Positions 1,301 to 60,524 are shown, counted from the first letter of the stretch. The stretch is 64,000 bases of DNA from an uncultured Gammaproteobacteria bacterium (GCA_963714705.1 CAVQPJ010000013.1:962512-1026511); one strand, 5' to 3'. Made by a program: numbers and translations. Notes: a model not told the origin generated them from the letters alone.

Positions 1301-1397
1301 GCTGCCCGCCGAAAGGTTGGTGCTAGCATTGAAGCCATCGTAGCCGATCTCTAACACCGGTATCGACAGCCGGTCTAGATTTGTGAGGAGCCCGGAC

Positions 1398-1796
1398 ATG
1401 AGAGTTGTGCCGCTGGTTGTCGTTGGCGTCGCGTGGCTTCTCGCGGCCTCACCTGCCGCCTCACATCACTCGTTTGCCGCGGAGTTCGACGTCAACCGGC
1501 CCGTCAAGTTGACGGGCACCGTCACGAAAATCGAATGGACGAATCCGCACGCGTGGCTCTTCATCGACGCCAAGAACGACAACGGCAGCGTCCAGAGCTG
1601 GGCGATCGAGCTCGTCGGTATCAACGATTTGCTCCGGCTCGGCTGGGGACGCGACAAAGTGAAAAATGGCGACGTCATCAACGTCGACGGATTCGGCGCG
1701 AAAAACGGAATGAGTATCGCAAACGCGGCCTCGGTCACTTTGGCCAGCTCAGGCGAGCTGCTTTGGGCCAGCGTCGCCAGGAAAGAAGCCAACTAG
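1398..1796 (+). CDS. Small secreted S-type protein (DUF6152-like), predicted mature N-terminus HHSF, paralog 1
   Basis: ATG 1398 is preceded by GAGGAG (1385..1390). The signal peptide ends AAS, followed by HHSFAAEFD, LTGTVTKIEWTNPHAW. Divergently arranged with the L-type gene 230..1300. Confidence 0.85.
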   Translation: MRVVPLVVVGVAWLLAASPAASHHSFAAEFDVNRPVKLTGTVTKIEWTNPHAWLFIDAKNDNGSVQSWAIELVGINDLLRLGWGRDKVKNGDVINVDGFGAKNGMSIANAASVTLASSGELLWASVARKEAN

Positions 1797-2951: not shown

Positions 2952-2994
2952 GTACCTCGACCTCGACCGCCGTCTCGCGGAGACCATCAGAAAT

Positions 2995-3071: not shown

Positions 3072-3249
3072 CTGGCCGGGATTGTAATGGAGTGCACCCG
3101 CTCCATGTCACGACACCGGGTTTCGACCGCCCCGGCGCGAGACGGCCCGGGGGCTTGCGAGACATTTCTGACCAGATCAGCCGGATTTCGGCGTTGCGCG
3201 CGATCAAACCGGGCGCGCAGAATCAAACCACCTGCTTCTCGGGTGAACA

Positions 3250-3783
3250 ATGAACGCGACCGCCGCGAGACCGAAGACCTACCGCGTGACGCGGGCGGAG
3301 CTGCGCCGGCGCTGGCAGCAGCTGGCCCTCGATCCGCTCGTGGCTGCGCTCCCGTTCAAAGTCGAGCTCAACGAGAAGGGCGTAATCGAAGTGAGTCCGC
3401 CGACGACTCGTCACGCTTTCCTTCAGTTTTTTGTCGCTCGCGAGCTGGATCGGCAGCGGCCTGAAGGCACGACGTTGACGGAGTGTCCGATCGAAACGGA
3501 CATCGGCATGCGGATTCCCGACGTCGTCTGGGCTTCAGCCGAGTTCATGGCAAGTCACCGAGGCGAGAACGAGTTTCGCGTCGCACCAGATCTCTGTGTC
3601 GAGGTGCTGTCGCCGAGGAATACGCAGGCCGAGATGGCGGAGAAAATCGCGGCCTATCTCACCGCCGGCGCGCGGGAAGTCTGGCTCGTCGGCGACGACG
3701 GCGTGCCTGAAGTCCACACGAGCGCCGGCCGCGCACCTGCGAGCACGATCGGCTTCGAGCTGCCGCGGCCGCCTACGACTTGA
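3250..3783 (+). CDS. Uma2-family (DUF820) putative endonuclease
   Basis: 177 aa. PD-(D/E)xK-like core IPDVVW...APDLCVEVLSPRN...EMAEKIAAYLTAGAREVWLV is typical of the Uma2 family. Confidence 0.8.
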   Translation: MNATAARPKTYRVTRAELRRRWQQLALDPLVAALPFKVELNEKGVIEVSPPTTRHAFLQFFVARELDRQRPEGTTLTECPIETDIGMRIPDVVWASAEFMASHRGENEFRVAPDLCVEVLSPRNTQAEMAEKIAAYLTAGAREVWLVGDDGVPEVHTSAGRAPASTIGFELPRPPTT

Positions 3784-4943: not shown

Positions 4944-5375
4944 CTAGCCGCCCGTGCCGCCGAAGTTCACGACCTGGGTGCCGTCCGGAAACGTCGCGCG
5001 CTGCAGCGTGCCGCCGGGCTCGCCGCTCTTCAGCGGCCAGACGACGACTTTGACCTTGTCGCCGGGCTCGAAGGTGTTCTTCGTCCAGCCGCGGCGGCCC
5101 AAATAGTTCGGGCTCATGCCTTCGAGGCCCCAGCGCGTCTTGCTGCCGTCGGCGTTCGTGACGTTGATCCACAAGAAGGTGTGCGGGTTCGTCCACTGGA
5201 ACTCGATGACTTCGCCTTCGAGGTCCTTGTTCGTCTGCGTGTCGAACACGCTGAACGAGTGATGCGCCTCGGCGCGCGACGTCCACGCTGCGAGCGTGAG
5301 GATGCCGACGACGCTGCCGAGCACCATGGTTACGTGCCGCAGGGAGCGAGCGCGATTCGTGGTTCTGCGCATCAT
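4944..5375 (-). CDS. Small secreted S-type protein (DUF6152-like), paralog 2
   Basis: Signal peptide ends SRAEA, followed by HHSFSVFD, EGEVIEFQWTNPHTFL. Its start codon directly abuts the TAA stop (5376..5378) of the upstream L-type gene. Confidence 0.85.
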   Translation of the reverse strand: MMRRTTNRARSLRHVTMVLGSVVGILTLAAWTSRAEAHHSFSVFDTQTNKDLEGEVIEFQWTNPHTFLWINVTNADGSKTRWGLEGMSPNYLGRRGWTKNTFEPGDKVKVVVWPLKSGEPGGTLQRATFPDGTQVVNFGGTGG

Positions 5376-6119
5376 TTACTTCTCCTCGAAGCTCAAGTCG
5401 ATGCCGGACTTGCCGTCGTCGGTCGTGAAGTTTCTGTTGTTCTGCTGGCACACGTACTCGGCGAGCGTCCAGTCGCGGTGACGGCCGTAGGCGGCCGTGC
5501 GCGTGAACGGCTTCGTGAGCGCTTCAGGGTCGGAGATCGTCGTCACGACTTCCAAGCGATCGGGCTCCGCCAAGCGGAACCGCTCGACGATGCGCATCTT
5601 CTCGCTGTGGCGCTGGCCTTGGTTGCCGAGTGACGTGTCCGTCGTGAACCCGACGGTGTCGACGACGAGCGTGTCGCCTTCCCAATGGCCGGTGGAGTGG
5701 CCGTTGAACGTGAGATCGGGATCCTCGGGATGCGGGCGGCTGTCCGTGAAGATCTGCCGCCACTGCGCATACGCCTCGATGAGGATCGTGACTTTGCCCG
5801 GCGTGAACAGAATCTCGATCGGATACGGCTGCGTCATGATCGCCGGCATGCCGTTCGGCACGCAGTTCGCCGTGGGACCGTCCTCGATCTCGCCGCGCTG
5901 CGTGGCCGCCTGAAACTCCGCGAGCTTCGCGGCGTACTCCGGCGTGAACGCCGGCGGCTCGCCGCCGCCGCGCGGCCCGCCGCCGCGCGTGACTTCCCAT
6001 AAGCCGCTGAAGTCCGGCAGCTTTGCTATGTTTTCCCAGGTGTCGCCTTGCGGCCCCGACTTTTGCGCCGCGAGCGGCGCTGCAGCGAAAACCGCGATGA
6101 ACCAAACGTGGCGTAGCAT
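5376..6119 (-). CDS. Secreted L-type partner protein, paralog 2
   Basis: ATG at 6119 gives signal peptide MLRHVWFIAVFAAAPLAAQ. Motifs PDFSGLW, ANCVPNGMP, WRQIFTDSR, GHWEGDTLVVDTVGF, ERFRL, EYVCQQNN. Confidence 0.85.
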   Translation of the reverse strand: MLRHVWFIAVFAAAPLAAQKSGPQGDTWENIAKLPDFSGLWEVTRGGGPRGGGEPPAFTPEYAAKLAEFQAATQRGEIEDGPTANCVPNGMPAIMTQPYPIEILFTPGKVTILIEAYAQWRQIFTDSRPHPEDPDLTFNGHSTGHWEGDTLVVDTVGFTTDTSLGNQGQRHSEKMRIVERFRLAEPDRLEVVTTISDPEALTKPFTRTAAYGRHRDWTLAEYVCQQNNRNFTTDDGKSGIDLSFEEK

Positions 6120-6188
6120 GATTCCCCCCTTCCCTGCCGTATACACTAGCAGCCCCGAGCTACCGCAGGCAGGACGATCTTCGAGAAC

Positions 6189-6864
6189 ATGCTCGAGCAC
6201 GCAGAACCCGCGCCGGCGCTGTCGTGGCTCGATGGCGCGCTGACTCAGTTCGCCGCCGACAACGCCGATCTCAGTCGCGCGCACGCGCGCGCTGCTCGAC
6301 TCCCTCATCGCGGAGCCGAAGCGCCACGCGCGCATGCTCAACACGCTGTCACTGCTCGAGCACATGGGCAGCCACAAGATCATGGCCACGCAACACTCGG
6401 CGGCCATCGATCAAGCGACGCTGAAGCACGTCGCCGAGGAAGCGCACCACGCGTTCTTCATGAAACGGCAGGCCGAGAAGACGGCCGAGCGTGCGCTCGA
6501 GTACGTCGCCGACGATCTGCTCGCGCCCTCTTCCGCCCGGATGTATTTCCAACGGCTCGAAGGGGCGACGGTGCACGCGCTTGGGCCAACGCGCAGCGCG
6601 CGCGCGGCCTACCTTTATATGTCGATGATCGTCGAGTTCCGCGCCTTGTGGTTCTACGGGTTGTACGAGGAAGCGCTGAAGCGAGCGCGGCATGCGCTGT
6701 CGTTGAAACGCGTGCTCGGCGAAGAGCAAGCGCACCTGGGCGACATGGCCGAGCGGCTCGAAGCCGGCGACGAGCTCGACGACGAGCGTGCAGCGCAAGT
6801 GCTTGCTGTGGAGCGCCGCCTATACGAGCGCCTGCTCGGCGCGATCGAGCGGGCGACCGCATGA
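6189..6864 (+). pseudogene. Ferritin-like diiron-carboxylate protein with one apparent frameshift near 6290
   Basis: The N-terminal ~33 codons are in the frame of ATG 6189 (GC3-rich). The rest is in the frame of 6334..6864. The join lies in the alternating GC run 6276..6292. The motif pattern E..EEAHH and E..EEQAH (E-x~28-ExxH twice) is the diiron four-helix-bundle signature. Confidence 0.6.
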
Positions 6865-8590: not shown

Positions 8591-8651
8591 AGATTGCGGA
8601 CGCGTATCGGCGGGGGTAACGTACCTCGGCGTCCCCCGACTGGTACCGATC

Positions 8652-9836
8652 ATGCTCTCGCGTTCACGCGCGTCGCTCCTGACGGGCCTTGGCTGCCTCT
8701 ACCTTTGGGGCAGCGCCGACGCTCACCACTCGTTCGGCACGTTCGACCTCAACCGCAACGTCGAGATCGTCGGCACCATCGCCGGCATCGACTTCGTGAA
8801 TCCGCATGCATGGTTGCGCGTAAACGCGCCGAATGCCGACGGCGCGACCATCGAGTATCGATGTGAGATGCGCGGCGCCACCGTGTTGCGCCGTTCCGGC
8901 TGGACGCCCGACCTGTTCGTTGTCGGCGCGCCGATCACCGTTCAGGGCGCACCCGATCGCGTGAACCCGCTCGCCTGCTACGTCAACACGCTCGTGTTGG
9001 CCGACGGCAAGACGCTCGATCGCTACACACAGCAGGGCGGAGCCGCTGCGCCCGCGGCTCCCGCGGCAACGTTCGCGCGCATGGCGAGCGGCGTGCCGAA
9101 TCTTGCAGGCGATTGGGCCGTCGAGCAGCAGCTCATGACCGATCCGCGCGGCCGCCTAGGCACACTGGTACCCGCGAGCGTCGCGGACCAGTTCGAGCCC
9201 GGTGCGGTCCCGCAGCTCGGCTTGGCGATGCCGGGTTCCGAGGGATTCGGCCCGCTGGCGATCGTCGCGATGTTCTATCGCTTGAGCGTCGGCGCCATCG
9301 CCCCGGAGGTGCTCCCATGGCTCGACCAGCCCATCAGGCTGACCGAACGCGGCATCGCGGCGGTGCCTCCGGCTGACCAGCTTCCGCAATTTCAATGCCT
9401 GCCGACCAGCATCATTTTCAATTGGTACATCGAGACACTCGTCAATCGAATCACCCAGAACGACGACGTCGTGACGATCGAATACGGCCAGCCGGGCCTC
9501 GCGCGCACGGTCCATTTGAACGCTGCTCATCCGCCGACGATCGAACCGAGCCGGGCAGGCCACTCGATCGGCCGCTGGGAAGGTGACGTGCTCGTCGTCG
9601 ACACCGTGGGATTCTTGCCGGGCATGCTCGGGCTCGAGATCGCGCATGGCGAAGACCTGCACGTCGTCGAGCGCTTCGCTTTGAACGCGGCGGGCACCGT
9701 GTTGACTCGCGAGTACACGGCCACCGATCCCGATCACTTCATCGGCGATTACCGAGGTACCGACGTCACGCCGCGCAGCCCGCTGCCGTTCGTCGAGGAC
9801 ACCTGTAACGCCGAGATCAACCCGGTGGTGCTCTAG
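8652..9836 (+). CDS. S-L fusion protein: DUF6152-like domain, Ala/Pro linker, then L-type domain in one intact polypeptide
   Basis: Signal peptide ends GSADA, followed by HHSFGTFD...IDFVNPHAWL (S part). Linker QQGGAAAPAAPAAT. Then VPNLAGDW, FQCLPTS, GRWEGDVLVVDTVGF, ERFAL, EDTCNAE (L part). The 394-aa ORF is uninterrupted. Confidence 0.85.
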   Translation: MLSRSRASLLTGLGCLYLWGSADAHHSFGTFDLNRNVEIVGTIAGIDFVNPHAWLRVNAPNADGATIEYRCEMRGATVLRRSGWTPDLFVVGAPITVQGAPDRVNPLACYVNTLVLADGKTLDRYTQQGGAAAPAAPAATFARMASGVPNLAGDWAVEQQLMTDPRGRLGTLVPASVADQFEPGAVPQLGLAMPGSEGFGPLAIVAMFYRLSVGAIAPEVLPWLDQPIRLTERGIAAVPPADQLPQFQCLPTSIIFNWYIETLVNRITQNDDVVTIEYGQPGLARTVHLNAAHPPTIEPSRAGHSIGRWEGDVLVVDTVGFLPGMLGLEIAHGEDLHVVERFALNAAGTVLTREYTATDPDHFIGDYRGTDVTPRSPLPFVEDTCNAEINPVVL

Positions 9837-13530: not shown

Positions 13531-13540
13531 GAGTCTCTCC

Positions 13541-16741: not shown

Positions 16742-16752
16742 GGCTCTCTCCG

Positions 16753-30602: not shown

Positions 30603-31835
30603 TCAATCGGCCCACGGCAACCCGCCGAAGAACGCGCTGAGCGCCGTGAAACGCTCGCCGAGCCAGTGCCACGCCGTGTGTCCGACGATGACGGCGATCA
30701 CGATGCCGCCGACGCGCGCGTCGACGTAACGGAACAGCAGATTCAGCCCCGGCACGAGCAGCACGAGCACGAGCAGCTGGCCGAGCTCGATGCCGACGTT
30801 GAACGCGAGCAGCGACGTCAGCACGTGGTCGCCCGCGAACTGTAACGTGTTCTGGAGCGCGAACGAGAAGCCGAAGCCGTGCACGAGCCCGAAGCCGAAG
30901 GCGATGGGCCAACGCGAGCGCGGATTCGGCCAGACGACGTTCTCCACGCACATATAGAAGATCGACAGCGCGATCAGCGTCTCGACGAGCGGCGGGAACC
31001 ACAGCCCCGTGGGCGCCGCGCCGTACGCGGATGCGATCAACGTCACGGAATGCCCCGCCGTGAACGCCGTGACGATCCAGACGAGCGCACGCAGCTGCCG
31101 CCGAAACGGCACGATGAGGCACAGCAGGAACAGAAGATGATCCGCGCCGTCGAGAATGTGCTCGAAGCCCTGCACGAGGAACCTGAGCAGCGACTGGTGC
31201 CAGCGCGGATCGAGCGCGACGACGCCGGCGTCGCCTTCGATCTGGAACACGCGCTCGACGCCGCTCGCACCGAAAAAGCGCACGGCGTTCACGACCCGCA
31301 TGCCGAGCCGCTCGGTGCGCAGGCGAATCGAGAACAACGAGGTCGGCGACTCGATCGGCGCTTCGAACTGCACGTCGAGCAGCGCTTGCTGCCACGGCAG
31401 CTCTAGCCCAAGCGGCAGGGGCGCAGCGGCGAGATGCGCGCGCGCGGAATCGTACTCGGCGAACGACCGGTCGCTCGGGATCGAGGCTCGGACGGCGACG
31501 ATATCGAGCCGTGGCACGCGCCGCTCGCCTTCGTAGAGCTCGATATTGTCGGCGAGCCAGAGACGCGCGGCGTCTCGAAGCTGCGCATCCGCACGCGGCA
31601 CATCGAGGTACCCCGGGCCGAACGTCGGGAACGTGATGTCCTGCATTGCCTCGAGGGGCGCGCGCACGAGCAGGTGGACGCGGTCGCCTTCGGGCCGCAC
31701 GAGCATGCGGACCGTGACGTCGCTCGGAACCTCGTGAGCGTGCGCGGCCGGCAGCAACGATGCGGCGAGCAAAACAACGCAGATAACCAGCCGCCGCACC
31801 CGCCAGACCTCGCTTCGCTCTATAGGTGGCGCCAA
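30603..31835 (-). CDS. HupE/UreJ-family membrane protein with ~190-aa N-terminal periplasmic extension
   Basis: Signal peptide ends AAHA, followed by HEVPSD. The C-terminal membrane domain has the GFEHILDGADHLLFLL motif typical of HupE/UreJ_2. Confidence 0.75.
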   Translation of the reverse strand: MAPPIERSEVWRVRRLVICVVLLAASLLPAAHAHEVPSDVTVRMLVRPEGDRVHLLVRAPLEAMQDITFPTFGPGYLDVPRADAQLRDAARLWLADNIELYEGERRVPRLDIVAVRASIPSDRSFAEYDSARAHLAAAPLPLGLELPWQQALLDVQFEAPIESPTSLFSIRLRTERLGMRVVNAVRFFGASGVERVFQIEGDAGVVALDPRWHQSLLRFLVQGFEHILDGADHLLFLLCLIVPFRRQLRALVWIVTAFTAGHSVTLIASAYGAAPTGLWFPPLVETLIALSIFYMCVENVVWPNPRSRWPIAFGFGLVHGFGFSFALQNTLQFAGDHVLTSLLAFNVGIELGQLLVLVLLVPGLNLLFRYVDARVGGIVIAVIVGHTAWHWLGERFTALSAFFGGLPWAD

Positions 31836-33828: not shown

Positions 33829-36211
33829 ATGGCCGAACAAACGAAACCCCTCGCGCTGCTGCGTCTCGCCATCTGGGCGTTGTTCGTCGCGGCGTTCGCG
33901 TTCCTCTATTACCGCTACTCGTCGCTCTGGGGCACCGAGCTCACGCTGCTCGCCGCGTCATCGGTCTGGCTCGCGTATGGCCTCTATCTGGTGCTCGGCG
34001 CGCTGCGCGGCTTCGCGTTGATTCCTGTCACGAACCTCGTCGTGCTTGCGGTCCCGCTCTTCGCGCCGGTGCCGCTGCTGGTGTTGACGCTCGTCGGCAT
34101 TACAATCTCCTCCGCCAGCATCTACGCGTTTGCCGGATCGCTGAAGCTCGGCGAGCACCTCGAGCGCAAGCACGCGCGGCACATGCAGCGGCTGCAAACC
34201 GCGCTGCACCGCAACCCGACCTCGATCGTCACGGCCTGGAGCTTCCTGCCGATCGTGCCGACAGATCTCATCTGCTACGTCTGTGGCGTCATGAAGATCT
34301 CGTTCCCGCGCTTCATGTTCGGCGTGCTCGTCGGCGAAGGCGCGATCTGCGCGGTCTACATTTTTGCCGGCACGACCTTGCTCGATCTCGGCAAGCGCGT
34401 ATTCGGCGCCGACGTCGCCGAAGCACAAGTCGCCGCGCAACCTGCGGGCGCCGCGGTCTATGCCGAGCACTGCGCGCTCTGCCACGAGCAGGTCAACGAG
34501 CGCATTCCGCATCGCACGGCGCTACAACAGCTGCCGGCCGAGCGCATCGTGCGCGCGCTCGATGCCGGCGCGATGCTCGCGATCGCGATGACGATGAATC
34601 GCGACGAGCGGCTCGCCGTGGCCGAGTATCTCGGCACCGACGCCGCCGAGACGGCGCCGTCTTCGGCCGCTTATTGCACCGAGCGCGCGGTGACGCTGGG
34701 CACGTCGCCGCGCACGAGCTGGAACGGTTGGAGCCCGACGCCCGACAACGCGCGCTACCAAAGCGCCGAGCGCGCAGGCCTGCGCGCCGAGCAAGTACCG
34801 AACCTGCGGCTCGAATGGGCGTACGGTTTCGCCGGCGACGTCTCGGCGTTCGCGGCGCCGACGATCGTCGACGGCCACATCTTCGTCGGCAGCGCCGGCG
34901 GGCTCGTGCAAGCGCTCGCGGCGGACAGCGGCTGCCTGAAGTGGACGTTCCAAGCGACGGGCCCCGTACGCGCGGCGCCGCTTGCCGCGGCGCGCGACGG
35001 ACGCCAGGTGCTGTTGTTCGGCGACCTCACGGGCTGGTTCTACGCCCTCGACGCAGCGACGGGCGATCTCGTCTGGAAGACGCAAATCGAGACGCACGAC
35101 TCGACGCGGCTCACGGCGCGCCGCGGCCGTGCACGACGGCGTCGCGTACGTGCCCGTGTCGTCGTGGGAAGAGTCGCGCGCCGGCGATCCCGACTACGCG
35201 TGCTGCACGTTCCGCGGCAGCATCGTCGCGCTGCGCGTGCGCGACGGCGCCCAGCTCTGGAAGACCTACCTGACCGACGCGCCGCGCGAGCTCGGCAAGA
35301 ACGGCCGCGGCGCACCGCTCTACGGACCTTCGGGCGCCGCCGTCTGGTCGACGCCGACCGTCGACGCGGCGCGCGGCCTGCTTTACGTCACGACGGGCGA
35401 CAACTACACGGAGCCCGCGACGCCGACGAGCGATGCCGTCGTGGCGCTCGCGCTCGCCGACGGCCGTATCGCGTGGATCGAAACAGATCACGGCCGAAGC
35501 GACGCCTACAACGGCTCGTGCACGCGCGATCACCGCTCGAACTGCCCGTTCGATGTCGGGCCGGATTACGACTTCGGCTCGTCCGCGATTCTGCTGCACG
35601 GCAGGCGCAGCGGCTGCTCGCCGGACAGAAGTCCGGCATCGTCTACGCGCTCGACGCGACGAAGCAAGGCGAAATCCTCTGGCAGACACGCGTCGGCGAA
35701 GGCGGCACGAACGGCGGCGTGCAGTGGGGCATGGCCACCGACGGCGAATACGTCTACGCGACGACATCCGACGTCGGCCGCACGCGCTGGGCCGGCGATC
35801 CGTTCGACACGCGCCGCTACGTTCTCGATCCGAAGCGCGGCGGCGGCCTGACGGCGCTGCGCGTCGCGGACGGCAGCCGCGCTTGGCACGCGTCCGCGGC
35901 GCCCTGCCCCGACGGCGCACCGGCCGGCTGCAGCCCCGCGCAGCCGGGCGCCGTCACGCTGATTCCCGGCGTCGTGTTCGCAACGTCGAACGACGGCCAC
36001 GTGCGCGCGCACGCGACGGCCGACGGCCGGGTGCTGTGGGACTTCGACACGGTGCGCGAGTTCGACACCGTCAACGGCGTGCCGGCGCGCGGCGGCTCGC
36101 TCGACGGCCAGGGCGTCGTCGTCGCCGACGGCCTCGTGCTCATCGCGCTCCGGCTATCCGCGCAACGGCGGCATGCCGGGCAACGTGCTGCTCGCGTTTC
36201 GCGCCGACTGA
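33829..36211 (+). pseudogene. VTT/DedA-like membrane domain, cytochrome c, then PQQ-type beta-propeller dehydrogenase (PVA-dehydrogenase-like), with three frameshifts
   Basis: N-terminal ~190 aa are a polytopic membrane domain. Then haem motif CALCH and propeller blades (VDGHIFVGSAGGLVQALAADSGCLKW, WFYALDAATGDLVWK). The frame changes near 35119, 35605 and 36148. The corrected C-terminus SGYPRNGGMPGNVLLAFRAD stops at 36209..36211. Confidence 0.7.
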
Positions 36212-36291
36212 ACCTCCCTTTCCAACGCTGGCTCGTTGGGCCAAACTCCTTGGCGCCGCGACGTTCGACTCGCGGAGCTGGAGACTCCCGT

Positions 36292-36687
36292 ATGAGAAGC
36301 GCAACGCTGATTTGCCTGGTCAGCTTGTCGACCACGCCCGCCGCACTCGCGCACCATTCCTTCTCCGCCGAGTTCGACGCGAACAAGCCGGTCCAAATGA
36401 CGGGCACCGTCACGAGCGTCGAGTGGCGAAATCCGCACGTGTGGTTCTACGTCGACGTCAAGGACGAGGGCGGCGCCGTATCGAACTGGGGCTTCGAGCT
36501 TGCGAGCCCGAATCTGCTGTTGCGCAACGGCTGGACGCCCTCGGCGATGAAGGTGGGCGACGTCGTGTCGGTCGCGGCGTATCGAGCGAAGAACGGTATG
36601 AACCTCGCGAATGCGCACGGCGTGACGCTGGCCGCGACGGGCAAGACGCTGTTCACGGGCTCGAGCAGCGCGAGTAGAGCGCAGTGA
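36292..36687 (+). CDS. Small secreted S-type protein (DUF6152-like), paralog 4
   Basis: ATG 36292 with its own signal peptide ...TTPAALA, followed by HHSFSAEFD, MTGTVTSVEWRNPHVWF. Listed only as the tail of the 952-aa composite ORF. Confidence 0.85.
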   Translation: MRSATLICLVSLSTTPAALAHHSFSAEFDANKPVQMTGTVTSVEWRNPHVWFYVDVKDEGGAVSNWGFELASPNLLLRNGWTPSAMKVGDVVSVAAYRAKNGMNLANAHGVTLAATGKTLFTGSSSASRAQ

Positions 36688-37499
36688 GCGCCGCGCTGAG
36701 GCTGTTCGCCATCGCCGCGGCGGCGCTGGCCGTGCACTCGGCCGAGGGCCAGTGGGCGCGTGTGCCGAACCCGTCGCTGCCGCGTGGCGCCGACGGCGCC
36801 GTCGACCTCGATGGCGCGGCACCCCGTGCGAGGCGAAGGCCGGACCTCTCCGGCGTCTGGCTCGCCGACGCCGAGCCGCTGCCGAAGGAGGCGGGCTTGT
36901 CGATTGAAGGCGACATGCCGTTTGCGCGTCACTTCGTCAACGTGACGGCGGATATTCCTCCCGACCCGCCGCTGCTTCAGCCGTGGGCCGCCGAGCTGTT
37001 TCAGAAGCGCCTCGAGAGCGGCGGCGTCGACGATCCCGTTGCGCACTGCAAGCCGAGCGGTCTGCCGATCATGAACGCGGTGCCGTTGCCGCTGAAGATC
37101 ATCCAGACGCCGAGCGTCGTGATCGTCTTCTACGAAGAGAACGCCGTGTTTCGCCAGATCTTCCTCGACGGCCGAAAGCCCGTCGAAGGTGCCGTGCCGC
37201 GCTACATGGGCTACTCGACGGGCCGCTGGGACGGCGACGCGCTCGTCGTCGACACGGTCGGCTTTAGCGACCACCACTGGCTCGATGCGATGGGGCATCC
37301 GCTCACCACTCAACTGCGTCTGACCGAGCGGTTCCGCAGGCCGACCGCCGGTCATCTCGAGATCGACGTGACCGTCGACGATCCCGGCGCATACACGCGG
37401 CCGTTCAGCTACACCATCAAATCCACGTTGCTACCCGACGAGGATCTGCTCGAGTACTTCTGCACCGACAACGAGAAGGACGCGCAGCACTACCAGTAG
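36684..37499 (+). CDS. Secreted L-type partner protein, paralog 4
   Basis: The GTG start overlaps the S4 stop by 4 nt. Signal peptide ...AALAVHSAEGQ. Motifs PDLSGVW, AHCKPSGLP, FRQIFLDGR, GRWDGDALVVDTVGF, ERFRR, EYFCTDNE. Confidence 0.85.
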   Translation: MSAALRLFAIAAAALAVHSAEGQWARVPNPSLPRGADGAVDLDGAAPRARRRPDLSGVWLADAEPLPKEAGLSIEGDMPFARHFVNVTADIPPDPPLLQPWAAELFQKRLESGGVDDPVAHCKPSGLPIMNAVPLPLKIIQTPSVVIVFYEENAVFRQIFLDGRKPVEGAVPRYMGYSTGRWDGDALVVDTVGFSDHHWLDAMGHPLTTQLRLTERFRRPTAGHLEIDVTVDDPGAYTRPFSYTIKSTLLPDEDLLEYFCTDNEKDAQHYQ

Positions 37500-51040: not shown

Positions 51041-52326
51041 ATGACGAAGGCCCGCGTGCTGTTCGCGAGCTTGATCGGCACGACGATCGAGTTCTTCGAT
51101 TTCTACATCTACGGCACGGCCGCCGTGCTCGTGTTCCCGCAGCTGTTCTTCCCGGCCGGCGATCCCGACGACCGCGACGCTGCAGTCGCTCGCGACCTTC
51201 GCGCTCGCGTTCTTCGCGCGGCCCGTCGGCTCGGCGCTGTTCGGCCACTTCGGCGACCGCATCGGGCGCAAGGCGACGCTCGTCGCGGCCTTGCTGACGA
51301 TGGGCCTGTCGACGGTCGCGATCGGCCTGCTGCCGACCTACGCCGCCATCGGCGTCGCGGCGCCCGCGCTGCTGGCGCTGTGCCGGTTCGGCCAGGGCCT
51401 CGGGCTCGGCGGCGAATGGGGCGGCGCCGTGCTGCTCGCGACCGAGAACGCGCCGCGCGGCAAGGAGAGCTGGTACGGCATGTTCCCGCAGCTCGGCGCG
51501 CCGCTCGGGTTCTTCTGCTCGACCGGCATCTTCCTCGTGCTGACCGAGGTGATGACGTACGACGATTTCCTCGCCTGGGGCTGGCGCATCCCGTTCCTCG
51601 CGAGCGCCGTGCTCGTCGGCGTCGGCCTCTGGGTGCGCCTGACGCTGACGGAGACGCCGGCGTTCCAGCGCGCGATCGAGCGCGCCGAGCGCGTGCGCGT
51701 GCCGATCCTGGTCGTGTGCGCGCGAGCACACGCGCACGCTGGTGCTCGCGACGCTCGCGGCCGTCACGACGTTCGTCGTGTTCTACCTGATGACGGTGTT
51801 CACGCTGAGCTGGGGCACCGACGAAGCTCGGCTTCCCGCGGCAGGACTTCCTGCTGCTGCAGATGATCGGCGTGCTGTTCTTCGCGCTGACGATTCCGCT
51901 GACGGCGGTCGGCCGCCGATCGCGTCGGCCGCTGGCCGATCCTGATCGGCGTCGAGCGTCGTGGCGATCGTCTTCGGCTTGACGTTCGCGCCGCTGTTCT
52001 CGAGCCGACGACGCGGTGACGGTCACGGTGTTCCTGTCGCTCGGGCTCGGCGCTGATGGGCTGCACGTACGGCGCGCTCGGCTCGGCGCTCGCGGAGCTG
52101 TTTCCGACGGCCGTGCGCTACACCGGCGCGTCGTTGACGTTCAACCTCGCGGGAATCCTCGGCGGCTCGCTCGCGCCGTACATCGCGACGTACCTGGCCG
52201 ACTCGTACGGCATCGCGCTACGTCGGCTACTACTTGTCGGCGGCAGCCGCCGTGACGCTCGCGGCGCAGCTCCTGCTCAACCGCCGGCCGCGGCCTCGCC
52301 CCGCCATAGAGCGCAGCGCCGCCTGA
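51041..52326 (+). pseudogene. MFS transporter of the metabolite:H+ symporter (MHS) family, at least six frameshifts
   Basis: TIEFFDFYIYGTAAVLVFPQLFFP, FGHFGDRIGRK, GQGLGLGGEWGGAVLLATENAP and LAELFPTAVRYTGASLTFNLAGILGGSLAPYI are recovered from all three frames. Confidence 0.75.
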
Positions 52327-52922
52327 GCTCCTCCCGTTCGGCCTCGCCGAGCACACGCGGCTCGACGAGTCGGCTTGCCCGTCGCTGCGTCGCGCAACGC
52401 CGAGCGCTTGTGATCGCCGCGCAAGCGCCAGCGCAGCACCTTCGCGAGCACGCGCGCGATCATGACGAGCTCCGGCAAGCCGTCCTTCGGAACCGCGGCG
52501 CGGCCGCCCTTCGCGCTCTTCGCGAAGCCGCGGCCGCGAATCGGACCGAGCGCCGCCGACGGCGCATCGATGAAGGCTTTGATGACGCCGATGAACGGCA
52601 TTGCGCTGGTGGCCATCGTGTTGCCGATCGGCGTGCGGCAGCAGCTCGCGTACCAGCGGATCATTCCTTTCGCGGACAGCCGCACGACCGCGACCTTGTC
52701 GGCTCCGGCCGTGAGACCGACGTTCGCTTGCGACATCTGCGTGATCTCGGTGCCGCCGTGCGCGTCGAGCACGTCGTCGGCGCGGCCGAGGAAATGCGCG
52801 AACGCTTGGCAGTCGTCGCAATAGCAGAAGCAGCGGTTGACGGTGCTCGGTGTCACATCGCGCGCGACGCCGCGCACGGCGCCGCAGCGGCAACGCAGCG
52901 CGAGATCGGTGATCTCTGCCAT
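52277..52922 (-). pseudogene. Cys-rich GFA/CENP-V-like (DUF6151-like) protein, one frameshift near 52380
   Basis: LRCRCGAVRG...NRCFCYCDDCQAFAHFLG...IRWYASCCRTPIGN. The corrected tail RLVEPRVLGEAEREELRRRCALWRGEAAAGG stops at 52277..52279. Confidence 0.5.
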
Positions 52923-52936
52923 AGGCAAAAGCGCAA

Positions 52937-52980
52937 AAGGGGACGGATCTATTTTCGCGAGAAAATAAATCCGTCCCCTT
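52937..52980 (-). terminator. Rho-independent terminator (AT-rich near-perfect hairpin)
   Basis: AAGGGGACGGAT-cT-ATTTTC-GCGA-GAAAAT-Aa-ATCCGTCCCCTT. 19 bp pair around a GCGA tetraloop. On the minus strand it is followed by TTGCGCTTTTG. Sits at the 3' end of the amidohydrolase gene. Confidence 0.7.
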
Positions 52981-54634
52981 GCGTTCGCCCGCGGCGTAGA
53001 CGACGTCGCCGCCGAGCAGCGTCAACACCGACTCGATGTTGCCGACCTCGTCGAGCGGCACCGTGAGGTAGTCGCGCGGACAGCACGGCGAGGTCCGCGA
53101 GCTTGCCGGTCTCGAGCGAGCCGCGCACGTCGTCGTCGAACGAGAACCAGGCGCTGCCGAGCGTGTAGAAGCGAAGCGCCGTCGAGCCGATCGGGCGTCT
53201 CTTCGGGCCCGCGGATCGGCGTGCCGGCCACGCGTCTTGCCGTCGAGGAACCACTGCAGCGACGTGAACGGGTTGTACGACGCGACGCGGTGCGCGTCGG
53301 TGCCGCCGCCGATCGCAACGCCCGAGCCGATGGCCCGTGACGACGGGCGGAATGCGCCGCGCCGCGTCGGCGCCTTGCCGGCGCACGAGGTCCTCGCCGC
53401 CGAAGTACATCGCGTCCTGCACGGTCCAGCCGACGCCGAGCGCGGCCATGCGGCTGCAGCGTCGCCTCCGACGCATCGTTCAAGTGCGCGATCGACCAGC
53501 GCAGCGGCGCGATCGGGACTTCGCGGTTCACGCGCTCGAAGATCTCGAGCAGGTGCGGCGACGGTGTTGTCGGGCCCCCAGTGCATCGTGATCGCCATGC
53601 CGCGCTCGGCGGCCCAGCGCACGATCTCGTAGTAGCGCTCCTTGTGCTCGGCCGTCGGCTCGGGATTGTTGTTCATCGCATACGTGATGCGCTCGCCGAG
53701 GCCGTTGAAGTGCAGGCGGTCGTCGCCGAAGCCCATCGGCAAGCAGCGCCGTGAGGCCCTGGAGCTCGGCGAGCTCGCCGCCCGCCGTCTGGCCGTTCAA
53801 GCTGTAGGCGACGCGGACCGTGAGCTCGCCGCGCCGCCAGACGTCGAACAGCGCCTGATAGTCGGGCGGGAAACAGATTGTTGCCGCCGGGATCGACGAC
53901 GCCCGTGAGCCCGAGCCGATTCAGCTCGCGGAAGAACTCGCGCGTGCCCTGCGACTTGCTCGGCGAACGTCGGCTTCGGCAGCCGATCGAACAGCGCGAT
54001 GATCGCGCCCTGCCCGCCGCTGATCGCGCCGGTGAGCCGCTCGCCGTCGCGCACGAGCGTGCCGCCCGCCGGCAGATCGGCGTCGCTCGCGGATGCCGAG
54101 CTTCGCGAATCCGTCGTCGGTCATGACGACCCAGCCGTAGCCGAGCTGCACGTAGACGGGATTGTTCGGCGCCGCCGCTTCGAGCTCGGCCTGCGTCGGC
54201 CGGCGGCGCTCGGCGAACTGCAGCTCGTTCCAGCCGCCGGCGACGATCAGCCAGCTGCCCGGCGGCCGGCGCTGCCGCGGCTGCGCTGATGCGCGCCAGC
54301 GCTTCCGTCAAGCGACCGCGCGCCGATCCAGTTGACCTCGGTGCTGAAGCGAGAGCGCCGCGCGCACGGCGTGCAGATGCGAGTCGATGAGCCCCGGAAT
54401 GACCGTGCGGCCGCCGAGCTCGACGACGCGCGTCGCGGGACCCGCGAGGCGGCGCATCTCGGCCGTGCTGCCGAGTGCCAGGATCTTGCCGTCGCGAATC
54501 GCGAGCGCCTCGCGCACCGACGCGTCGGCGTCGACGGTGACGACCTTGCCGTCGAGCAGCACGAGGTCGGGCGGCTGCGCCGCGCCGCGGCGCGAGCGAC
54601 GCCGCAAACAGCACGAGGACGAACGGGCGCGCAT
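52949..54634 (-). pseudogene. Secreted amidohydrolase (YtcJ-like metal-dependent hydrolase), at least ten frameshifts
   Basis: DLVLLDGKVVTVD...VIPGLIDSHLHAV, MAITMHWGPD, WSIAHLNDAS, GGGTDAHRVASYNPF and GKLADLAVLSRDYLTVPLDEVGNIESVLTLLGGDVVYAAGE are scattered over three frames. The exact stop is uncertain. Confidence 0.7.
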
Positions 54635-54641
54635 AGTCGGT

Positions 54642-55260
54642 TCATTCGTGTTCTCCGCCGGCGCGGCCGCCGTGCCGCGCCAGCCGCCGCGTGAGGTGCA
54701 GCTTCACCTCGGGCCACTCGCTCGCGAGGATGCTGTACATCACGACGTCGCGCGCGGAGCCGTCGCGGCGCGTTCCGAAATGCCGGACGACGCCGTCTTT
54801 CTTCGCACCGAGCGCTTCGATCGCGCGCTGCGAGGCGAAGTTGAACTTGTCGGTGCGAAGGCCGACGACCTTGCAGCCGAGCGTCTCGAACGCGTGCGTC
54901 AGGAGCAGCAGCTTGCAGCTCGTGTTGACGTGGCTGCGCTGCCAGCTCTTCGCGTACCAGGTGTAGCCGATCTCGACGCGGTCGATGTCGGCGACGATGT
55001 CGTGGAAGCGCGTGCTGCCGACGATCGCGCCAGTCGCAAGATTGCGCACGGCCCACGGCAGCATGCGGCCTTCGCCCTGCCGCGCGAGCGCGGTCTCGAT
55101 GTACGCCTTCGTCTCCGCGGGCGCCGGCACGGCCGTGAACCAGAGCTCCCACAGCGCGCCGTCGGCAGCGGCCGCCGCGAGGTCGCTGCTCGTGGCGCAG
55201 CCCGAGCGGCTCGAGCCGCACGCCGTGACCTTCGAGCTCGACAGGCGAAACGGTGATCAT
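54642..55260 (-). pseudogene. GNAT-family N-acetyltransferase (RimJ/RimL-like), one frameshift near 55190
   Basis: MITVSPVELEGHGVRLEPLGLRHEQ in one frame. ETKAYIETALARQ...IGYTWYAKSWQRSHVNTSCKLLLLTHAFETLG...RAIEALGAKKDGVVR in another. Confidence 0.75.
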
Positions 55261-55284
55261 GGCGTCAGCGCGACGGCGACGTGC

Positions 55285-55837
55285 TCACGGCCAGAGCCAA
55301 CCGAACGCGCCGCCCGTCAGCAACGCGTAGACGAGACCGTCGATCGTCGTGCGGACGGTGGAACCGAGACTGCGCGAGTACCAGATCCAGCTCTGCCACA
55401 GCGCGAGCGCGTAGCCCGCGAAGGCGACCGTGCTCGTGACGCGGAACACCGTCATGTACGGCGCACCCGCCGGCAGCGTCAGCGACGGCGACATAGGCCG
55501 CGAACACGGCGATGACGATCGAATAGATGAACCACTTGACGAGGTTGCGCCCGATCGAGGTGTTCACGAGTATCGTCAGCGCGAAGCTCGGCCCGCGCGC
55601 CTGCTTCGCCTTGAACTCCGGCGAGCTCATGTGCGCCATGCTGTCCGGGATCGGCGCGGCGTAGTCGCCGGGCGCCAGGTTGAACGGCCGCAGCGCGTCC
55701 ATGACGGCGTCCTCGGCAGCAAATTTCTTGAAGTCCTTGGAGTGCCAGCGAAGCGCCATGTGGATCACCGAGCTCGCGACGAACACGAGCACGGCGGAGA
55801 GCAGGATCGGCAACCACAAGTCGACGAGCGAGACCAT
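55285..55837 (-). pseudogene. Hypothetical integral membrane protein, one frameshift near 55495
   Basis: N-terminal part from ORF 55265..55837 (MVSLVDLWLPILLSAVLVFVASS...). C-terminal TM-rich part from ORF 55285..55494 (...[13 protein letters not shown]...GGAFGWLWP). Confidence 0.5.
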
Positions 55838-55882
55838 GACGACCCCCCGGTCAGCGCGGCGCGCGGCGAAGCGGCGCGGAAC

Positions 55883-56688
55883 TTATGGAACGATCGGGCT
55901 CGTGCGGTCGATGCTCGAGCGCTCGCCGCCGACCATGAGCTCGACGGCGTAGTTCGCCTGCTGGCACGAGTACTCGAACAGCTCGACGCCGCGGTCGAAC
56001 CCCAACTCGAAACCACCGGTCCAGCTCGCCGTATACGCGCCCGGATCGTCCACCGTGATCTGGTAGGTGATCGTCTCGGCGTCCTTGCGCGTGAACCGCT
56101 CGATCGTGTGCAGCTGCGTCGTGTGCGGCATGCCGCGGCGGTCGAGCCAGAAGCTCTCGTTGAAGCCCGTGCTGTCGATGACGAGCGTGTCGCCTTCCCA
56201 CTTGCCGATCGCGTGGCCGTAGTAGCTCGGCTCGAGATCCTTGGGATGCGAGCGGCCGTCCATGTAGACCGTGCGAAACGTGTGCGGACCGCCGATATCG
56301 AAGATGTAGAGGCGCTTCAGCTCGGGCATCTCGACGAACTCGACGCCGTACGGCGTCTGGAACTGCCGCGCGGTGCCGCTCGCTTTGCAGCGCGTGTGCG
56401 GCTCGAGCTCGTGGATCTGCCGTGCGTCGTAGAGCGCCTTCGCCCACGGCTGAAACGGCGTCTGGTCGGCCGGATTGATCGGGTCCGTGATGCCGAACAT
56501 GCGGCGTCCACACGCCCTTCTCTGTCGGGCGTCGCGCCCCAGAGGATCGCGCGGCCGTCGGCGTCGCGCGGCGCGGGACCCGGCGGCGGCGCGTTCGCGT
56601 TGCGGCCGCGGCGTTGCGCGCGCGCGCGGGATCCGACGATCACGAGCGCCGCCAACAACAAGGCGGACGCGAGCACAGTCAGCTTCAT
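55883..56688 (-). pseudogene. Secreted L-type partner protein, paralog 5, frameshift(s) near 56510
   Basis: ATG 56688 is preceded by GGAGAG. Signal peptide MKLTVLASALLLAALVIVGSRARAQ (ORF 56317..56688). Then FQPWAKALY, TRCKASG, FRTVYMDGR, GKWEGDTLVIDSTGF, ERFTR, EYSCQQAN (ORF 55883..56908). Confidence 0.75.
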
Positions 56689-56733
56689 GAGCGTCTCTCC
56701 GCGGTCGGGCGGGGCCGGGCCCGCCGCCTGCGA

Positions 56734-57156
56734 TCAATTGGTTGCCGTTGTCTGGCGGCTGCTCGAGTCGGCGTCGAGCGTCTGGCCGGGCCGGCCGCCC
56801 GTCGCCGTCAGCGTCACGGTGCGCGCGTTCATGCGGTTCTCGCCGTTGCGCGCCATGAAGCCGTCGACGCTGACCGACTCGCCGATCTTCAGCGTCTCGC
56901 GGCGCCAACCGCTGCGCTGCAGGCCGTGCGGCGGGCCCATCTCGGCGCCCCAGTTCGTGACTTCACCCGTCGCCTCGTCCTTCACGTTGATGTAGAACCA
57001 GACGTGCGGGTTGGTCCACTCGACCTTCGTGACGATGCCGGTGAGCTTGACGGGCTTCGCGGCATCGAATTCGGCCGAGAACGAATGGTGCGCGAACGCA
57101 GCTCCCGAGAGGAGCATGCCGGCGACGATCGAAGCGGCCACTGTGCGAATGTTCAT
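56734..57156 (-). CDS. Small secreted S-type protein (DUF6152-like), paralog 5
   Basis: ATG 57156 is preceded by GGAGGA. Signal peptide ends GAAFA, followed by HHSFSAEFD, LTGIVTKVEWTNPHVWF. Intact. Confidence 0.85.
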   Translation of the reverse strand: MNIRTVAASIVAGMLLSGAAFAHHSFSAEFDAAKPVKLTGIVTKVEWTNPHVWFYINVKDEATGEVTNWGAEMGPPHGLQRSGWRRETLKIGESVSVDGFMARNGENRMNARTVTLTATGGRPGQTLDADSSSRQTTATN

Positions 57157-57198
57157 GTTGCGATCCTCCGAATCAAAGCTGCGGCGAACGAGCGCCGC

Positions 57199-58326
57199 TT
57201 ACGAGCGATTGTCTTGACAGAAATAGACGGGCAACTCCTCGCCCCCGACCCACTTGAGCTCCCAGCCGCTCGACCACGGCTGCGTGTACGCGCCCGGGTC
57301 GTCGACCGTGACCTCATATCGTAGCGTGTTGTAGTCGGTGCGCGTGAAGCGCTCGACGAGCGAGAGCTGGTCGGTGTGCGGCAAGCCGCCGTTCGTGAAC
57401 CAGAAGTCCTCGTTGAAGCCCGTCGTCGCGACGACGAACGTATCGCCTTCCCAATGCGCGACGGCGCGGCCGTAGTAGAGCGGATTGTCGTCGTCGCCCT
57501 GGACCTGGCCCTGCTGATCGCGGCCATCCATATAGATGATGCGGTAGTTGCGGTTGCCGCCGCCGATCAGCACGAAGATGCGCTGGCGCGCCGCGTCTTG
57601 CGACGAACTGCACGCCGTAAGGCGTCTGAAACTGGCGCACGGCGCCGGGATTCTTGCAGTTCAGGAAGCCCGGGTCGTCGGCGAGGTGCCGCTGCTGGCG
57701 GTGCTGGTAGAGACCAAGCGCCCACGGTTGAAACGGCGCGACGCGCGGCGCGTCGGCGATCCGTGCGAGCACGCCGTCGGCGTCCATGCGCACGTTGGCG
57801 CCGGCCTGCTGCAGCACGGTGCTCGTCGGATAGGCCCAGTACCCGCCGCTGCCGTCGACTGACGCCGAGCAGCGGCTTGCCGTCGGAGCCGCGCGGCGCA
57901 GGCTGTCGCTGCGAGCGCGCGACGGTCGGCGCGCTGTCCGTCGACGTTGTAGACCTGCCGATTCGTCGCCGTCGCGATGACGGTTTCGCCCCAGACCTGG
58001 CGCGAGCCGTCGCGCGCAGGCGGGCCGCTGACGTCTGATGGCATCGCCGGGCTGCAACGTGTCGTGCTTCCAGCCGCTGCGCAGCAGCAGCACGGTGCTC
58101 TCGAGCTCGACGGCCCAGTTCTCGATGGCTGCCGTCGTCGCGCGTGACGTTGGCGAACACGTGCACGTGCGGATTGCGCCAATCGACGCTCGTCACGATG
58201 CCGCGCAGCTCCGGTGCTCTTCGTGTCGTCGAACTTCGCGACGATCGCGTGATGCGCGGCGGCGAGCGACGCCGCGAACGCAGCGCCCAGTCCGACGCAC
58301 CAACCGGCGACGGAACGCGACTTCAT
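57199..58326 (-). pseudogene. Second S-L fusion (DUF6152-like domain plus L-type domain), at least five frameshifts
   Basis: The ATG at 58326 overlaps the upstream stop (ATGA). Signal peptide ends SLAAA, followed by HHAIVAKFD...VTSVDWRNPHVHVF...LLRSGWKHDTLQPGDAI. There is no second signal peptide. Then PRGSDGKPLL, FQPWALGLY, LNCKNPG, YRIIYMDGR, AHWEGDTFVVATTGF, ERFTR, VYFCQDN. Confidence 0.65.
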
Positions 58327-58725
58327 TGCCGGCTCGCCGTGAACGTGCCGCGGCCTTTGTTGCTCGACCACGTGCCGTTGATCGAGCGATTCGGCAGCTC
58401 GAGGTTCTCGAGCTTGCCTTCGATGACGTAGCGCACGGCGCTGCCGTCCTTGTCCTTGCCTTCGGCCTCGAGCTTGACGACCCAGCCGTTCGGCTCGAGC
58501 GACGCGCGCGCTGAGCGGCATGTTGTCGGTGCCGGGGTTGATCATGCCCGTGATGGCTTTGCCGTCCCAATCGAGGATCAGCAGGATGTTGTCGCCGTGA
58601 ACGGTGTTGCCCTGCCACTCGCCGAGCCACGAGCCCTTGAGCGGGTGACCTTCCTGCGCGCCGCTCGACGCGAGCACGCCGAGCGCCAACATCGCCGCCG
58701 CCATCGTTATTAGTCTTTTCATCAT
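58323..58725 (-). pseudogene. Small hypothetical secreted protein, one frameshift in the CG run 58503..58511
   Basis: Signal peptide MMKRLITMAAAMLALGVLASSGAQE. GSWLGEWQGNTVHGDNILLILDWDGKAITGMINPG. The corrected tail SLEPNGWVVKLEAEGKDKDGSAVRYVIEGKLENLELPNRSINGTWSSNKGRGTFTASRQ ends in an ATGA overlap with the next gene. Confidence 0.6.
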
Positions 58726-59261: not shown

Positions 59262-59320
59262 CGATAAAGCCTATGCTCGGGCGCGCTCGCGCTGCAACCG
59301 GCGGGATTGTGAGCCGCGGC

Positions 59321-60455
59321 TCAGTAACCGAGTCGAACGACGCCCTGCGCCATTCCTTGCACGGTTCCGGCCGTCAGCCATTCGAGCGACGCGCGGAACA
59401 ACAGCAGATGGTTCGTCTCCCACATCGCGTTATGTGAGGAACAACCCAAGTCGAGCAGCACCTTGTTCTCGGCGCCGAGATCGGCGAAGTACTCGCTGGA
59501 CGCGCTCGGGCACGACCTGCTTGTCGTGAATGCCGGCGATCATCAACGTCGGCGTTTGCATGCGCTCGACGGCCGGCTTGCCGAAGCCCCACACGGTCGT
59601 GTTCGGCGCTCGCCGCACGCCTTGTCCCCACGACGCGCCGACGGGATCGGACTCGAGCATCGCGCGCCACACGGCGGCGGCGACGGCAGGCTCGTATTGA
59701 TTCGGGCAACCGACCTGGCGTTCCCAGTTCGCGGTGAAGTCGGCATGCGACTGCGCGTTGAACGCGGCGCCCGCGCGCGGGGCTCGGCTGCGGCGGCTGC
59801 TGACCCGCATCGCGCGAATACGCCGGCGCGAGCAGCACGAGCTTCGCCACCTTGTCCGGGTTGCGCGACGCGTAGCCGCCGGCGCGCGGACCGCCGAGCG
59901 ACCAGCCGACGAGACTCACGCGCGGCACGTCGCGCAGCGAGCGGATGTACTCGACGACGGCGTCGATGTCGTCCCAGTCCGACGCGATCGTCGTGAGCTG
60001 CTGCTGCGTGCGTGGCGTTGCAAGGCGTGCGGCCGAGCGCCGTCTGCTGCTCCGCCGAAAGATTGCAGGCGTCGTTCATGACGTTCGGCCGCGTCGAGCG
60101 CCCGTAGCCCGTCATGTCCATCGAGAACACGTCGAAGCCGGCGGCCGCGAGAAACGCCATCCAGCTGTAATCGGCGTGCGGCACGTCGAACGCAACCTCG
60201 GCCGGCGTGCCGGCGCCGTGCACGAACAGCACGACGCGATCGTCGCGCGGCGCGCCGCGCTGGATCGTCGCGGGCTTCACGCGCTCGCGGACGTAGAGTC
60301 TGCGCCGTTTGGCCTTCGATCGAAGGCACGATCGAGCGATTCGGAACGTAGTGATCGACGGTCAGAACGTGCTGACTGTCCTCGCCGGCCGTCGGCTGCG
60401 CGTTGGCGAGCCCGGCTGCGAGCGCCGCAAAGAACGCGATCGCGATCGTGCGCAC
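59321..60455 (-). pseudogene. Secreted alpha/beta-hydrolase, at least four frameshifts
   Basis: GTG 60455 after GGGGGGA. Signal peptide VRTIAIAFFAALAAGLANAQ. VVLFVHGAGTPAEVAFD, FDVFSMDMTGYGRS, nucleophile elbow GWSLGG, MIAGIHDKQV and the corrected tail ...HNAMWETNHLLLFRASLEWL lie in different frames. Confidence 0.65.
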
Positions 60456-60524
60456 GTGTAGTCCCCCCTCGAGAATGCCACCCAATGAATTTGGAAGTAT
60501 CGTCGCAGGTTTGGCTGACAGCGC

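Follow-up and report, generated by a model that had tools for sequence, protein, structure and literature searches.

The window analysed here is a 64,000-nucleotide stretch of DNA from an uncultured Gammaproteobacteria bacterium (GCA_963714705.1 CAVQPJ010000013.1:962512-1026511), and the genes in question lie on its minus strand between 52.9 and 58.7 kb. Translation of this region in three frames gives seven recognisable proteins, in the order that an initial annotation of the window had proposed for a single transcription unit: a small exported protein (P1), a fusion of two domains designated S and L, a stand-alone S protein, a stand-alone L protein, a membrane protein, a GNAT acetyltransferase and an amidohydrolase. 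Comparison with related loci shows that the first four, P1, the S·L fusion, S and L, all with predicted Sec-type signal peptides, make up a conserved core. The membrane protein, the cytoplasmic GNAT protein and the exported Amidohydro_3 protein are seen by the same comparison to adjoin this cassette only in the window genome and its closest relatives, and there in mosaic form. The seven genes are listed below with the single-base differences that interrupt them and with their sizes in relatives, among which are the syntenic metagenome contig L003 and the related locus L092.

58323..58725, minus strand: P1, a small Sec-exported protein (about 132 amino acids in relatives), insertion at 58511
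57199..58326, minus strand: S·L fusion (372 amino acids in relatives), identified with Pfam, insertions near 58212, 58126, 58033, 57942, 57861 and 57599
56734..57156, minus strand: S, a stand-alone DUF6152 protein of 140 amino acids, an intact open reading frame identified with Pfam
55883..56688, minus strand: L, an exported protein (266 amino acids in relatives), insertions at 56637, 56624, 56620, 56524 and 56501
55285..55837, minus strand: membrane protein (183 amino acids, intact in L092), outside the core, insertion at 55486
54642..55260, minus strand: GNAT acetyltransferase (Acetyltransf_3), outside the core, insertion at 55184
52949..54634, minus strand: exported Amidohydro_3 hydrolase (556 amino acids in L003), outside the core, identified with Pfam, 13 insertions and 2 deletions

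Six of the seven proteins hop frames, and in the window sequence as written only S is an intact open reading frame, so that the order of seven consecutive genes given by the initial annotation stands, though it had missed the frameshifts. The intergenic gaps of 42, 45, 45, 24 and 7 nucleotides, taken from the reading-frame ends and the junction sequences, and the ATGA overlap of the P1 stop with the fusion start at 58323..58326 (…CGGCAATGAAG…) are as had been claimed; the P1 stretch from 58323 to 58725 is 403 nucleotides long, no multiple of three. Pfam assigns S to DUF6152 (PF19649) with 102.5 bits against a gathering cut-off of 27, and the N-terminal third of the fusion to the same family with 87.7 bits. 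Scans of the interrupted genes were run on reading frames stitched across the frameshifts, and on such stitched sequence the sixth gene matches the GNAT model Acetyltransf_3 (71.2 bits, cut-off 25.4) and the seventh Amidohydro_3 (256.2 bits, cut-off 29.7). No Pfam or NCBIfam model matched P1, L or the membrane protein, and in tblastn the C-terminal region of the fusion shares 49-54% identity with L. Signal peptides are predicted for all four core proteins and for the amidohydrolase (cleavage after …AHA and before QPPDL), and none for the GNAT protein.

The interruptions can be judged against the contig L003 (514 kb), which is about 86% identical in nucleotides to the window between 45.5 and 64 kb and encodes intact proteins of 132, 372, 137, 266, 205 and 556 amino acids. 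Between 49 and 62 kb the window carries, relative to L003, 53 insertions and 11 deletions of one base each, outside homopolymer runs. Within the seven genes, judged against L003 and L092, there are one indel in P1, six in the fusion, five in L, one each in the membrane and GNAT genes and 15 in the amidohydrolase gene, a total of about 29 over six genes, nearly all of them insertions. The insertions in the cassette, membrane and GNAT genes recur at the same sites in the comparison with L092, a locus of 93% nucleotide identity in which L (266 amino acids) and the membrane gene are intact. The third-position GC phase of the window is steady, with long intact open reading frames, from 1 to 45 kb, and choppy and switching beyond. 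One might read the frameshifts as real and the locus as a decaying pseudogene array, since six of its seven genes are interrupted as written, and we hold this to be scarcely credible. The bias of 53 insertions to 11 deletions, in random sequence context and at about 2-11 insertions per kb relative to L003 across all 18.5 kb of otherwise unrelated genes (45.5-64 kb), is unlike decay; no in-frame stops were seen in the stitched reading frames; and the differences from L092 fall overwhelmingly at third codon positions (counted where the frame is intact, 4, 0 and 21 at positions one, two and three in L, and 4, 2 and 11 in the fusion), which argues for purifying selection rather than decay. We attribute the frameshifts to insertion-biased sequence errors in roughly the final 18.5 kb of the window, which looks like a low-accuracy part of the assembly, and the same comparisons show the locus to be a genuine protein-coding region under purifying selection. 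Because errors of the insertion type occur there, readings based on open reading frames are unreliable in the last 18.5 kb.

The order P1, S·L fusion, S, L was seen in Gammaproteobacteria and Acidobacteriota, at a total of 41 non-redundant loci, which were gathered by similarity to L or P1, so that counts of co-occurrence lean toward that subfamily. The initial annotation had described a fused and a split S/L module lying back to back, downstream of a small exported protein unrelated to them, and it is this arrangement that recurs. Profile searches for S, L and P1 found the P-S-L-S-L order in 16 non-redundant loci, 11 of them gammaproteobacterial and five from Acidobacteriota/Terriglobia, the L-anchored loci having come from 80 species-representative genomes. 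Candidatus Rariloculus, Pseudomonadales and Pseudohongiellaceae are among the gammaproteobacterial sources, and the cassette is found largely in uncultured soil Acidobacteriota and Gammaproteobacteria. In a scan of metagenome loci anchored on P1 and seeded with seven close P1 sequences, 14 of the 15 loci that extend 3.2 kb or more downstream had the full order, and 21 of the 22 that extend 1.2-3.2 kb had part of it. Six annotated ortholog loci all consist of a small protein, a DUF6152 fusion of about 372 amino acids, a DUF6152 protein of about 137 amino acids and L, with flanks that differ, and four of the six retain the ATGA overlap. As far as our searches show, the cassette as a unit, with the partners L and P1, belongs to no described family. 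DUF6152 is itself a catalogue entry only, whose homologs carry the same annotation, and our literature searches found no paper on DUF6152 or PF19649 and none on Rariloculus. The cassette is compact, is conserved in both phyla and would lend itself to heterologous expression.

The S domain starts with His-His in 90 of 94 cases, and an NPH motif follows about 25 residues on, again in 90 of 94. Since a signal-peptide-like stretch precedes the pair in 87 of 89 sequences, with alanine at position -1 in 85 of 89, we take His-His to be the predicted mature N-terminus, as in the window S, where the predicted signal peptidase site falls between AFA and HHSF. This nearly invariant feature is directly testable. 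S adjoins L or is fused to it in 86 of 97 S domains, and in all 22 cases where one reading frame holds both domains S is the N-terminal partner, an S-first order that would fit a need for a free N-terminal histidine. The fusion consists of a signal peptide, a DUF6152 OB-fold (oligonucleotide/oligosaccharide-binding) domain starting AHH, a PRxPDGKP linker and the L barrel. In the AlphaFold2 model of the fusion ortholog P0121 (pLDDT, the predicted local distance difference test score, 83.8; pTM, the predicted template-modelling score, 0.81) the S domain is a five-stranded OB fold, its strands spanning residues 32-48, 53-61, 67-76, 95-103 and 109-117 and a helix (77-82) separating strands 3 and 4. 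Foldseek matches this domain to SSB, PriB and the LysRS N-domain at a probability of 1.0 and expect values (E) of about 1e-3 to 1e-2; a profile search of the fusion against PDB sequences gave nothing significant.

Two groups of known proteins offer comparisons with S. Like the histidine-brace proteins (LPMOs, CopC, PmoB and YcnI), S has a nearly invariant histidine as its predicted first mature residue, and it is never placed behind another domain, which fits the need for a free N-terminal amine. The histidine-brace proteins known so far have immunoglobulin-like or cupredoxin-like folds, whereas S is modelled as an OB fold and shares no sequence similarity with them, and a literature search found no paper joining a histidine brace with an OB fold. 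The other comparator is CusF with the BOF family (YgiW and YdeI), which S resembles in being small, exported and, by its model, of OB fold. CusF is a metallochaperone whose site is formed by one histidine, two methionines and a tryptophan inside the barrel, whereas the conserved positions that the fusion alignment lists for the S domain include no methionine; CusF and BOF proteins are also absent from the fold matches shown for S and are not paired with a barrel protein.

The L family is large: of 1.84 billion clusters at 50% identity, its profile matched 17,776. Relatives of L run into thousands, every one annotated as hypothetical and most of them from uncultured Gammaproteobacteria, with 92% identity in the best case. 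If the S-L model proposed below holds, the cassette represents a large, unstudied set of families, in which L alone has roughly 17,800 clusters and no Pfam model. No sequence similarity of L to any PDB chain was found. An alignment of 147 L domains shows C99 conserved at 100% and C240 at 99%, R137, D142, R144, E195, R199 and D213 each at 90% or more, and no conserved histidine cluster; the motifs of the family are the conserved cysteine pair, PRxADG (PRxADGxP) and WEGDTLV(V/I)D. The AlphaFold2 model (pLDDT 72.6) has a barrel of eight main strands behind an N-terminal helical region, and L is modelled as a disulfide-stapled barrel. Its best PDB folds are CRBP/FABP, the Tp0751 lipocalin and the avidins, all weak matches at E of about 1e-2 and target template-modelling scores of 0.53-0.57. 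Any likeness to calycins (lipocalins, FABP/CRBP and avidins) would lie in these weak matches and in the eight main strands of the model, and the conserved arginines of L may recall the carboxylate-binding arginines of FABPs; L differs from calycins in its extra N-terminal helical region, its conserved disulfide pair and the PRxADGxP motif. The bacterial proteins ZinT and YceI belong to the calycin superfamily. L occurs in the further architectures S-L, L-L, CarboxypepD_reg-L (P0305) and L-DUF3471, and these fusions gave no clue to an enzyme activity.

P1 begins, in its mature form, with QEGHPLKGSW and ends with SRQ at the stop codon, and the start QEG(H)P…GxW is invariant in the family. A profile search found no PDB relative of P1, and comparison with L by hhalign matched the signal peptides alone, at a probability of 10%; P1 is a separate family, and in these searches neither L nor a solved structure was detectably related to it. 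The cassette L and P1 both have an invariant glutamine just after the predicted cleavage site (AxA, then Q), which could become an N-terminal pyroglutamate, and S has His-His at that place.

Taken together, these observations suggest a model in which S and L would pair as a periplasmic complex, with S docking on L. S would supply a metal centre, formed like a histidine brace around its free N-terminal histidine, and L would have a pocket of calycin type in which a small organic ligand could sit; the cassette might bind, shuttle or oxidatively modify a small molecule in the periplasm. P1 would be a third dedicated subunit, and the amidohydrolase and GNAT protein would be recent neighbours outside the mechanism. 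We consider it probable, if well short of certain, that the best overall explanation of the locus is a conserved exported cassette with error-type frameshifts and a putative periplasmic S-L complex. The joint proposal, with the metal on S, the ligand in L, a small-molecule role, P1 as a subunit and the downstream genes as recent arrivals, is tentative, and we would not count on all of it holding at once. A further step, which we think unlikely, would make S a new class of exported metalloprotein, carrying a histidine-brace-like centre for copper or another metal on an N-terminal His-His of an OB fold, working with L and P1 as a periplasmic enzyme or carrier for small organic molecules and, in some lineages, wired to PSCyt/PSD cytochromes.

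Several points weigh against the proposed complex and its mechanism. In a canonical OB fold the whole length of strand 1 lies between the N-terminus and the beta1-beta2 loop. The metal, the contact between S and L and the ligand are all predictions, and the matches of L to calycins are weak, none reaching E <= 1e-3. L has no S nearby in 77 of 170 L domains, so that it can work without S. The co-occurrence counts carry the bias toward the L or P1 subfamily, gene calling on the collected loci was crude, and gene spacing is the one ground for supposing co-transcription in the window.

Among the alternatives, the one closest to the initial annotation takes the seven genes as one functional operon in which S and L, with the amidohydrolase and the acetyltransferase, process an amide or N-acetylated periplasmic substrate. 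The gaps of 7-45 nucleotides with no strong internal terminator found, the signal peptide of the amidohydrolase, and the recurrence of the order L, membrane gene, GNAT, amidohydrolase in the related locus L103 and of GNAT followed by amidohydrolase after L in L003 (which has no membrane gene) all speak for it. The close relatives, at about 80-93% nucleotide identity, are nevertheless mosaic downstream of L, and the three downstream genes vary among them. Of the aligned relatives, L092 and L103 have the membrane gene, and L003, L100 and L001 do not; in L100 the GNAT gene follows L immediately, in L001 the amidohydrolase gene does, and in L092 an insert of about 1.85 kb, spanned by an opposite-strand reading frame, separates L from the membrane gene. 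Among the 28 cassette loci with at least 900 nucleotides of downstream sequence, the next gene encodes GNAT in one, the membrane protein in one, PSCyt/PSD proteins in three, an FAD oxidoreductase in one and ILVD in one, and none of ten probe proteins was found downstream in the other 21. Distant cassettes precede PSCyt/PSD and DUF1552 genes or, as in L004, an FAD oxidoreductase and a dihydroxy-acid dehydratase gene. The syntenic comparison finds the neighbours unconserved outside the closest clade, and the GNAT protein, having no signal peptide, would work in a different compartment. The proposed link of the module to the amidohydrolase and acetyltransferase is therefore contradicted by its variation among relatives, the processing of an amide or N-acetyl substrate is unsupported, and we judge the seven-gene operon very unlikely as a functional unit. 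Transcription as one unit would agree with the tight spacing in the window genome, where no convincing internal terminator was detected. Gene order is kept in relatives for P1, the fusion, S and L only. The tight same-strand spacing of a single genome here suggested more of a functional link than comparison across genomes bears out.

Two other readings start from neighbours found more widely, in a set of 86 loci examined within 8 kb of S/L, where PSCyt/PSD proteins occur at 15, DUF1552 at 11, acidobacterial CarboxypepD_reg barrels at 15, TonB-dependent receptors at 7, ankyrin proteins at 8, pyrroloquinoline quinone (PQQ) dehydrogenases at 7 and Amidohydro_2 with LigB at 5-6, none of them being universal. 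S, L and P1 could be accessory subunits of a periplasmic redox system around PSCyt/PSD and DUF1552, with S as a metal or electron-transfer module. PSCyt/PSD and DUF1552 are the commonest neighbours other than S, L and P1 themselves, tied with the acidobacterial outer-membrane barrel; they directly follow L in L007, L008 and L009; PQQ dehydrogenases stand nearby in seven loci; and an S gene elsewhere in the window (36292..36687) follows a frame with PQQ-propeller and cytochrome-c matches. PSCyt/PSD and DUF1552 pairs, which are known from Planctomycetes and Verrucomicrobia, are recurrent neighbours of S/L, at times overlapping the end of L, but they are absent at the window cassette and at most others, and the counts are raw ones. 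The function of PSCyt/PSD proteins is itself not known (PMC5615132), and the literature that mentions DUF1552, DUF1585, DUF1588 or DUF1592 gives no function. We regard a redox role of this kind as rather improbable. Alternatively L, with or without S, might capture a substrate for TonB-dependent outer-membrane transport and pass small molecules to periplasmic enzymes, a role suited to a barrel that is calycin-like in its model. This would agree with the receptors or CarboxypepD_reg barrels within 8 kb at 22 of the 86 loci, with the CarboxypepD_reg-L fusion (P0305) and with the Amidohydro_2 and LigB aromatic ring-cleavage genes beside S, L and P1 in 5-6 loci. These lineages carry very many TonB-dependent receptors, however, and by an estimate from general knowledge 22 of 86 may be background only; no receptor adjoins the window cassette, and we give this reading little credence. 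An enrichment of TonB-dependent receptors near S/L was not adopted as evidence, no background rate having been computed. The putative periplasmic S-L complex remains our preferred reading over both.

Some details of these neighbourhoods may be added. PSCyt/PSD genes (DUF1585/1587/1588/1592/1595) and a DUF1552 gene (HXXSHH) lie directly after the cassette in L007 (8940-12823), L008 (8813-12645) and L009 (8813-12591), with a four-nucleotide overlap in L009, and near S/L the pair is often joined by an ankyrin-repeat protein. In L027, L035, L037 and L079, the S, L and P1 genes stand beside genes for Amidohydro_2 and a LigB-type ring-cleavage dioxygenase, in L027 and L037 with a TonB-dependent receptor as well, and the LigB neighbourhood hints at a link to aromatic catabolism in some lineages. 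In L092, the closest relative, the long opposite-strand frame of the insert (7835-9687) includes a signal-peptide-like start (MKVNVRLIYISCILALV…).

The features that flank the run in the window are the following.

52937..52980, no strand assigned: inverted repeat resembling an intrinsic terminator, from folding and a repeat search
52230..52928, minus strand: DUF6151 gene, directly downstream of the hairpin
59290..60485 (approximate), minus strand: exported alpha/beta hydrolase gene, upstream of P1, likewise frameshifted in the window

The inverted repeat at which the initial annotation ended the run is real, with a 19-bp stem containing one mismatch, a 6-nucleotide loop, a fold of -38.8 kcal/mol over 66 nucleotides and a U-rich tail, followed by UUUUGCGCUUUUG. 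A scan for consensus terminators missed it, as the tail has four T and the scan needs five. The scan reported one weak 6-bp hairpin in the gap between the fusion and S (57181..57198), an Rfam search of 52-60 kb found nothing, and a sigma-70 promoter scan found no sites, which says little at 68% G+C. The DUF6151 gene starts 8 nucleotides past the hairpin on the same strand. In L003 (13150-13176) the DUF6151 gene follows the amidohydrolase gene by 11 nucleotides with no hairpin, the hairpin being an insertion relative to L003; it occurs once in the window, and the idea of a repeated mobile element was rejected for that single occurrence. Where the amidohydrolase gene seems to end, it overlaps the hairpin; its 3' end and stop are uncertain because the stop at 52949 is in another frame than the last conserved residues (…VVYAAGE). 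On the other side the alpha/beta hydrolase gene, about 135 nucleotides from P1, is the most persistent flank of the cassette, present at 10 of 36 evaluable cassette loci.

Four further S/L modules lie in the same 64 kb, making six in the window, and all S copies start AHHSF. At 230-1796 a minus-strand L gene, whose product is extended at the C-terminus by about 100 amino acids, is divergent from an S gene at 1383..1796; L is followed by S on the minus strand at 6407..4944; and an intact S·L fusion of 394 amino acids occupies 8652..9836. In the module at 36.3 kb, S scores 104.4 bits for DUF6152 in Pfam, and its gene (36292..36687) overlaps that of L (36684..37499) by four nucleotides. A stop-free frame on the plus strand, 33829-36687, runs from VTT, cytochrome-c and PQQ-propeller matches into this S at 36292, and these are probably separate genes sharing a frame rather than one protein of 952 amino acids. 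Elsewhere, three adjacent large open reading frames of 465, 1066 and 403 amino acids at 12133-17964 (minus strand) look like an RND efflux system by sizes and N-terminal sequences alone; a STAND/AAA NTPase-like gene followed by a Uma2-family endonuclease gene lies at 1827-3783 (plus strand), and a HupE/UreJ_2 membrane protein gene at 30603-31835 (minus strand).

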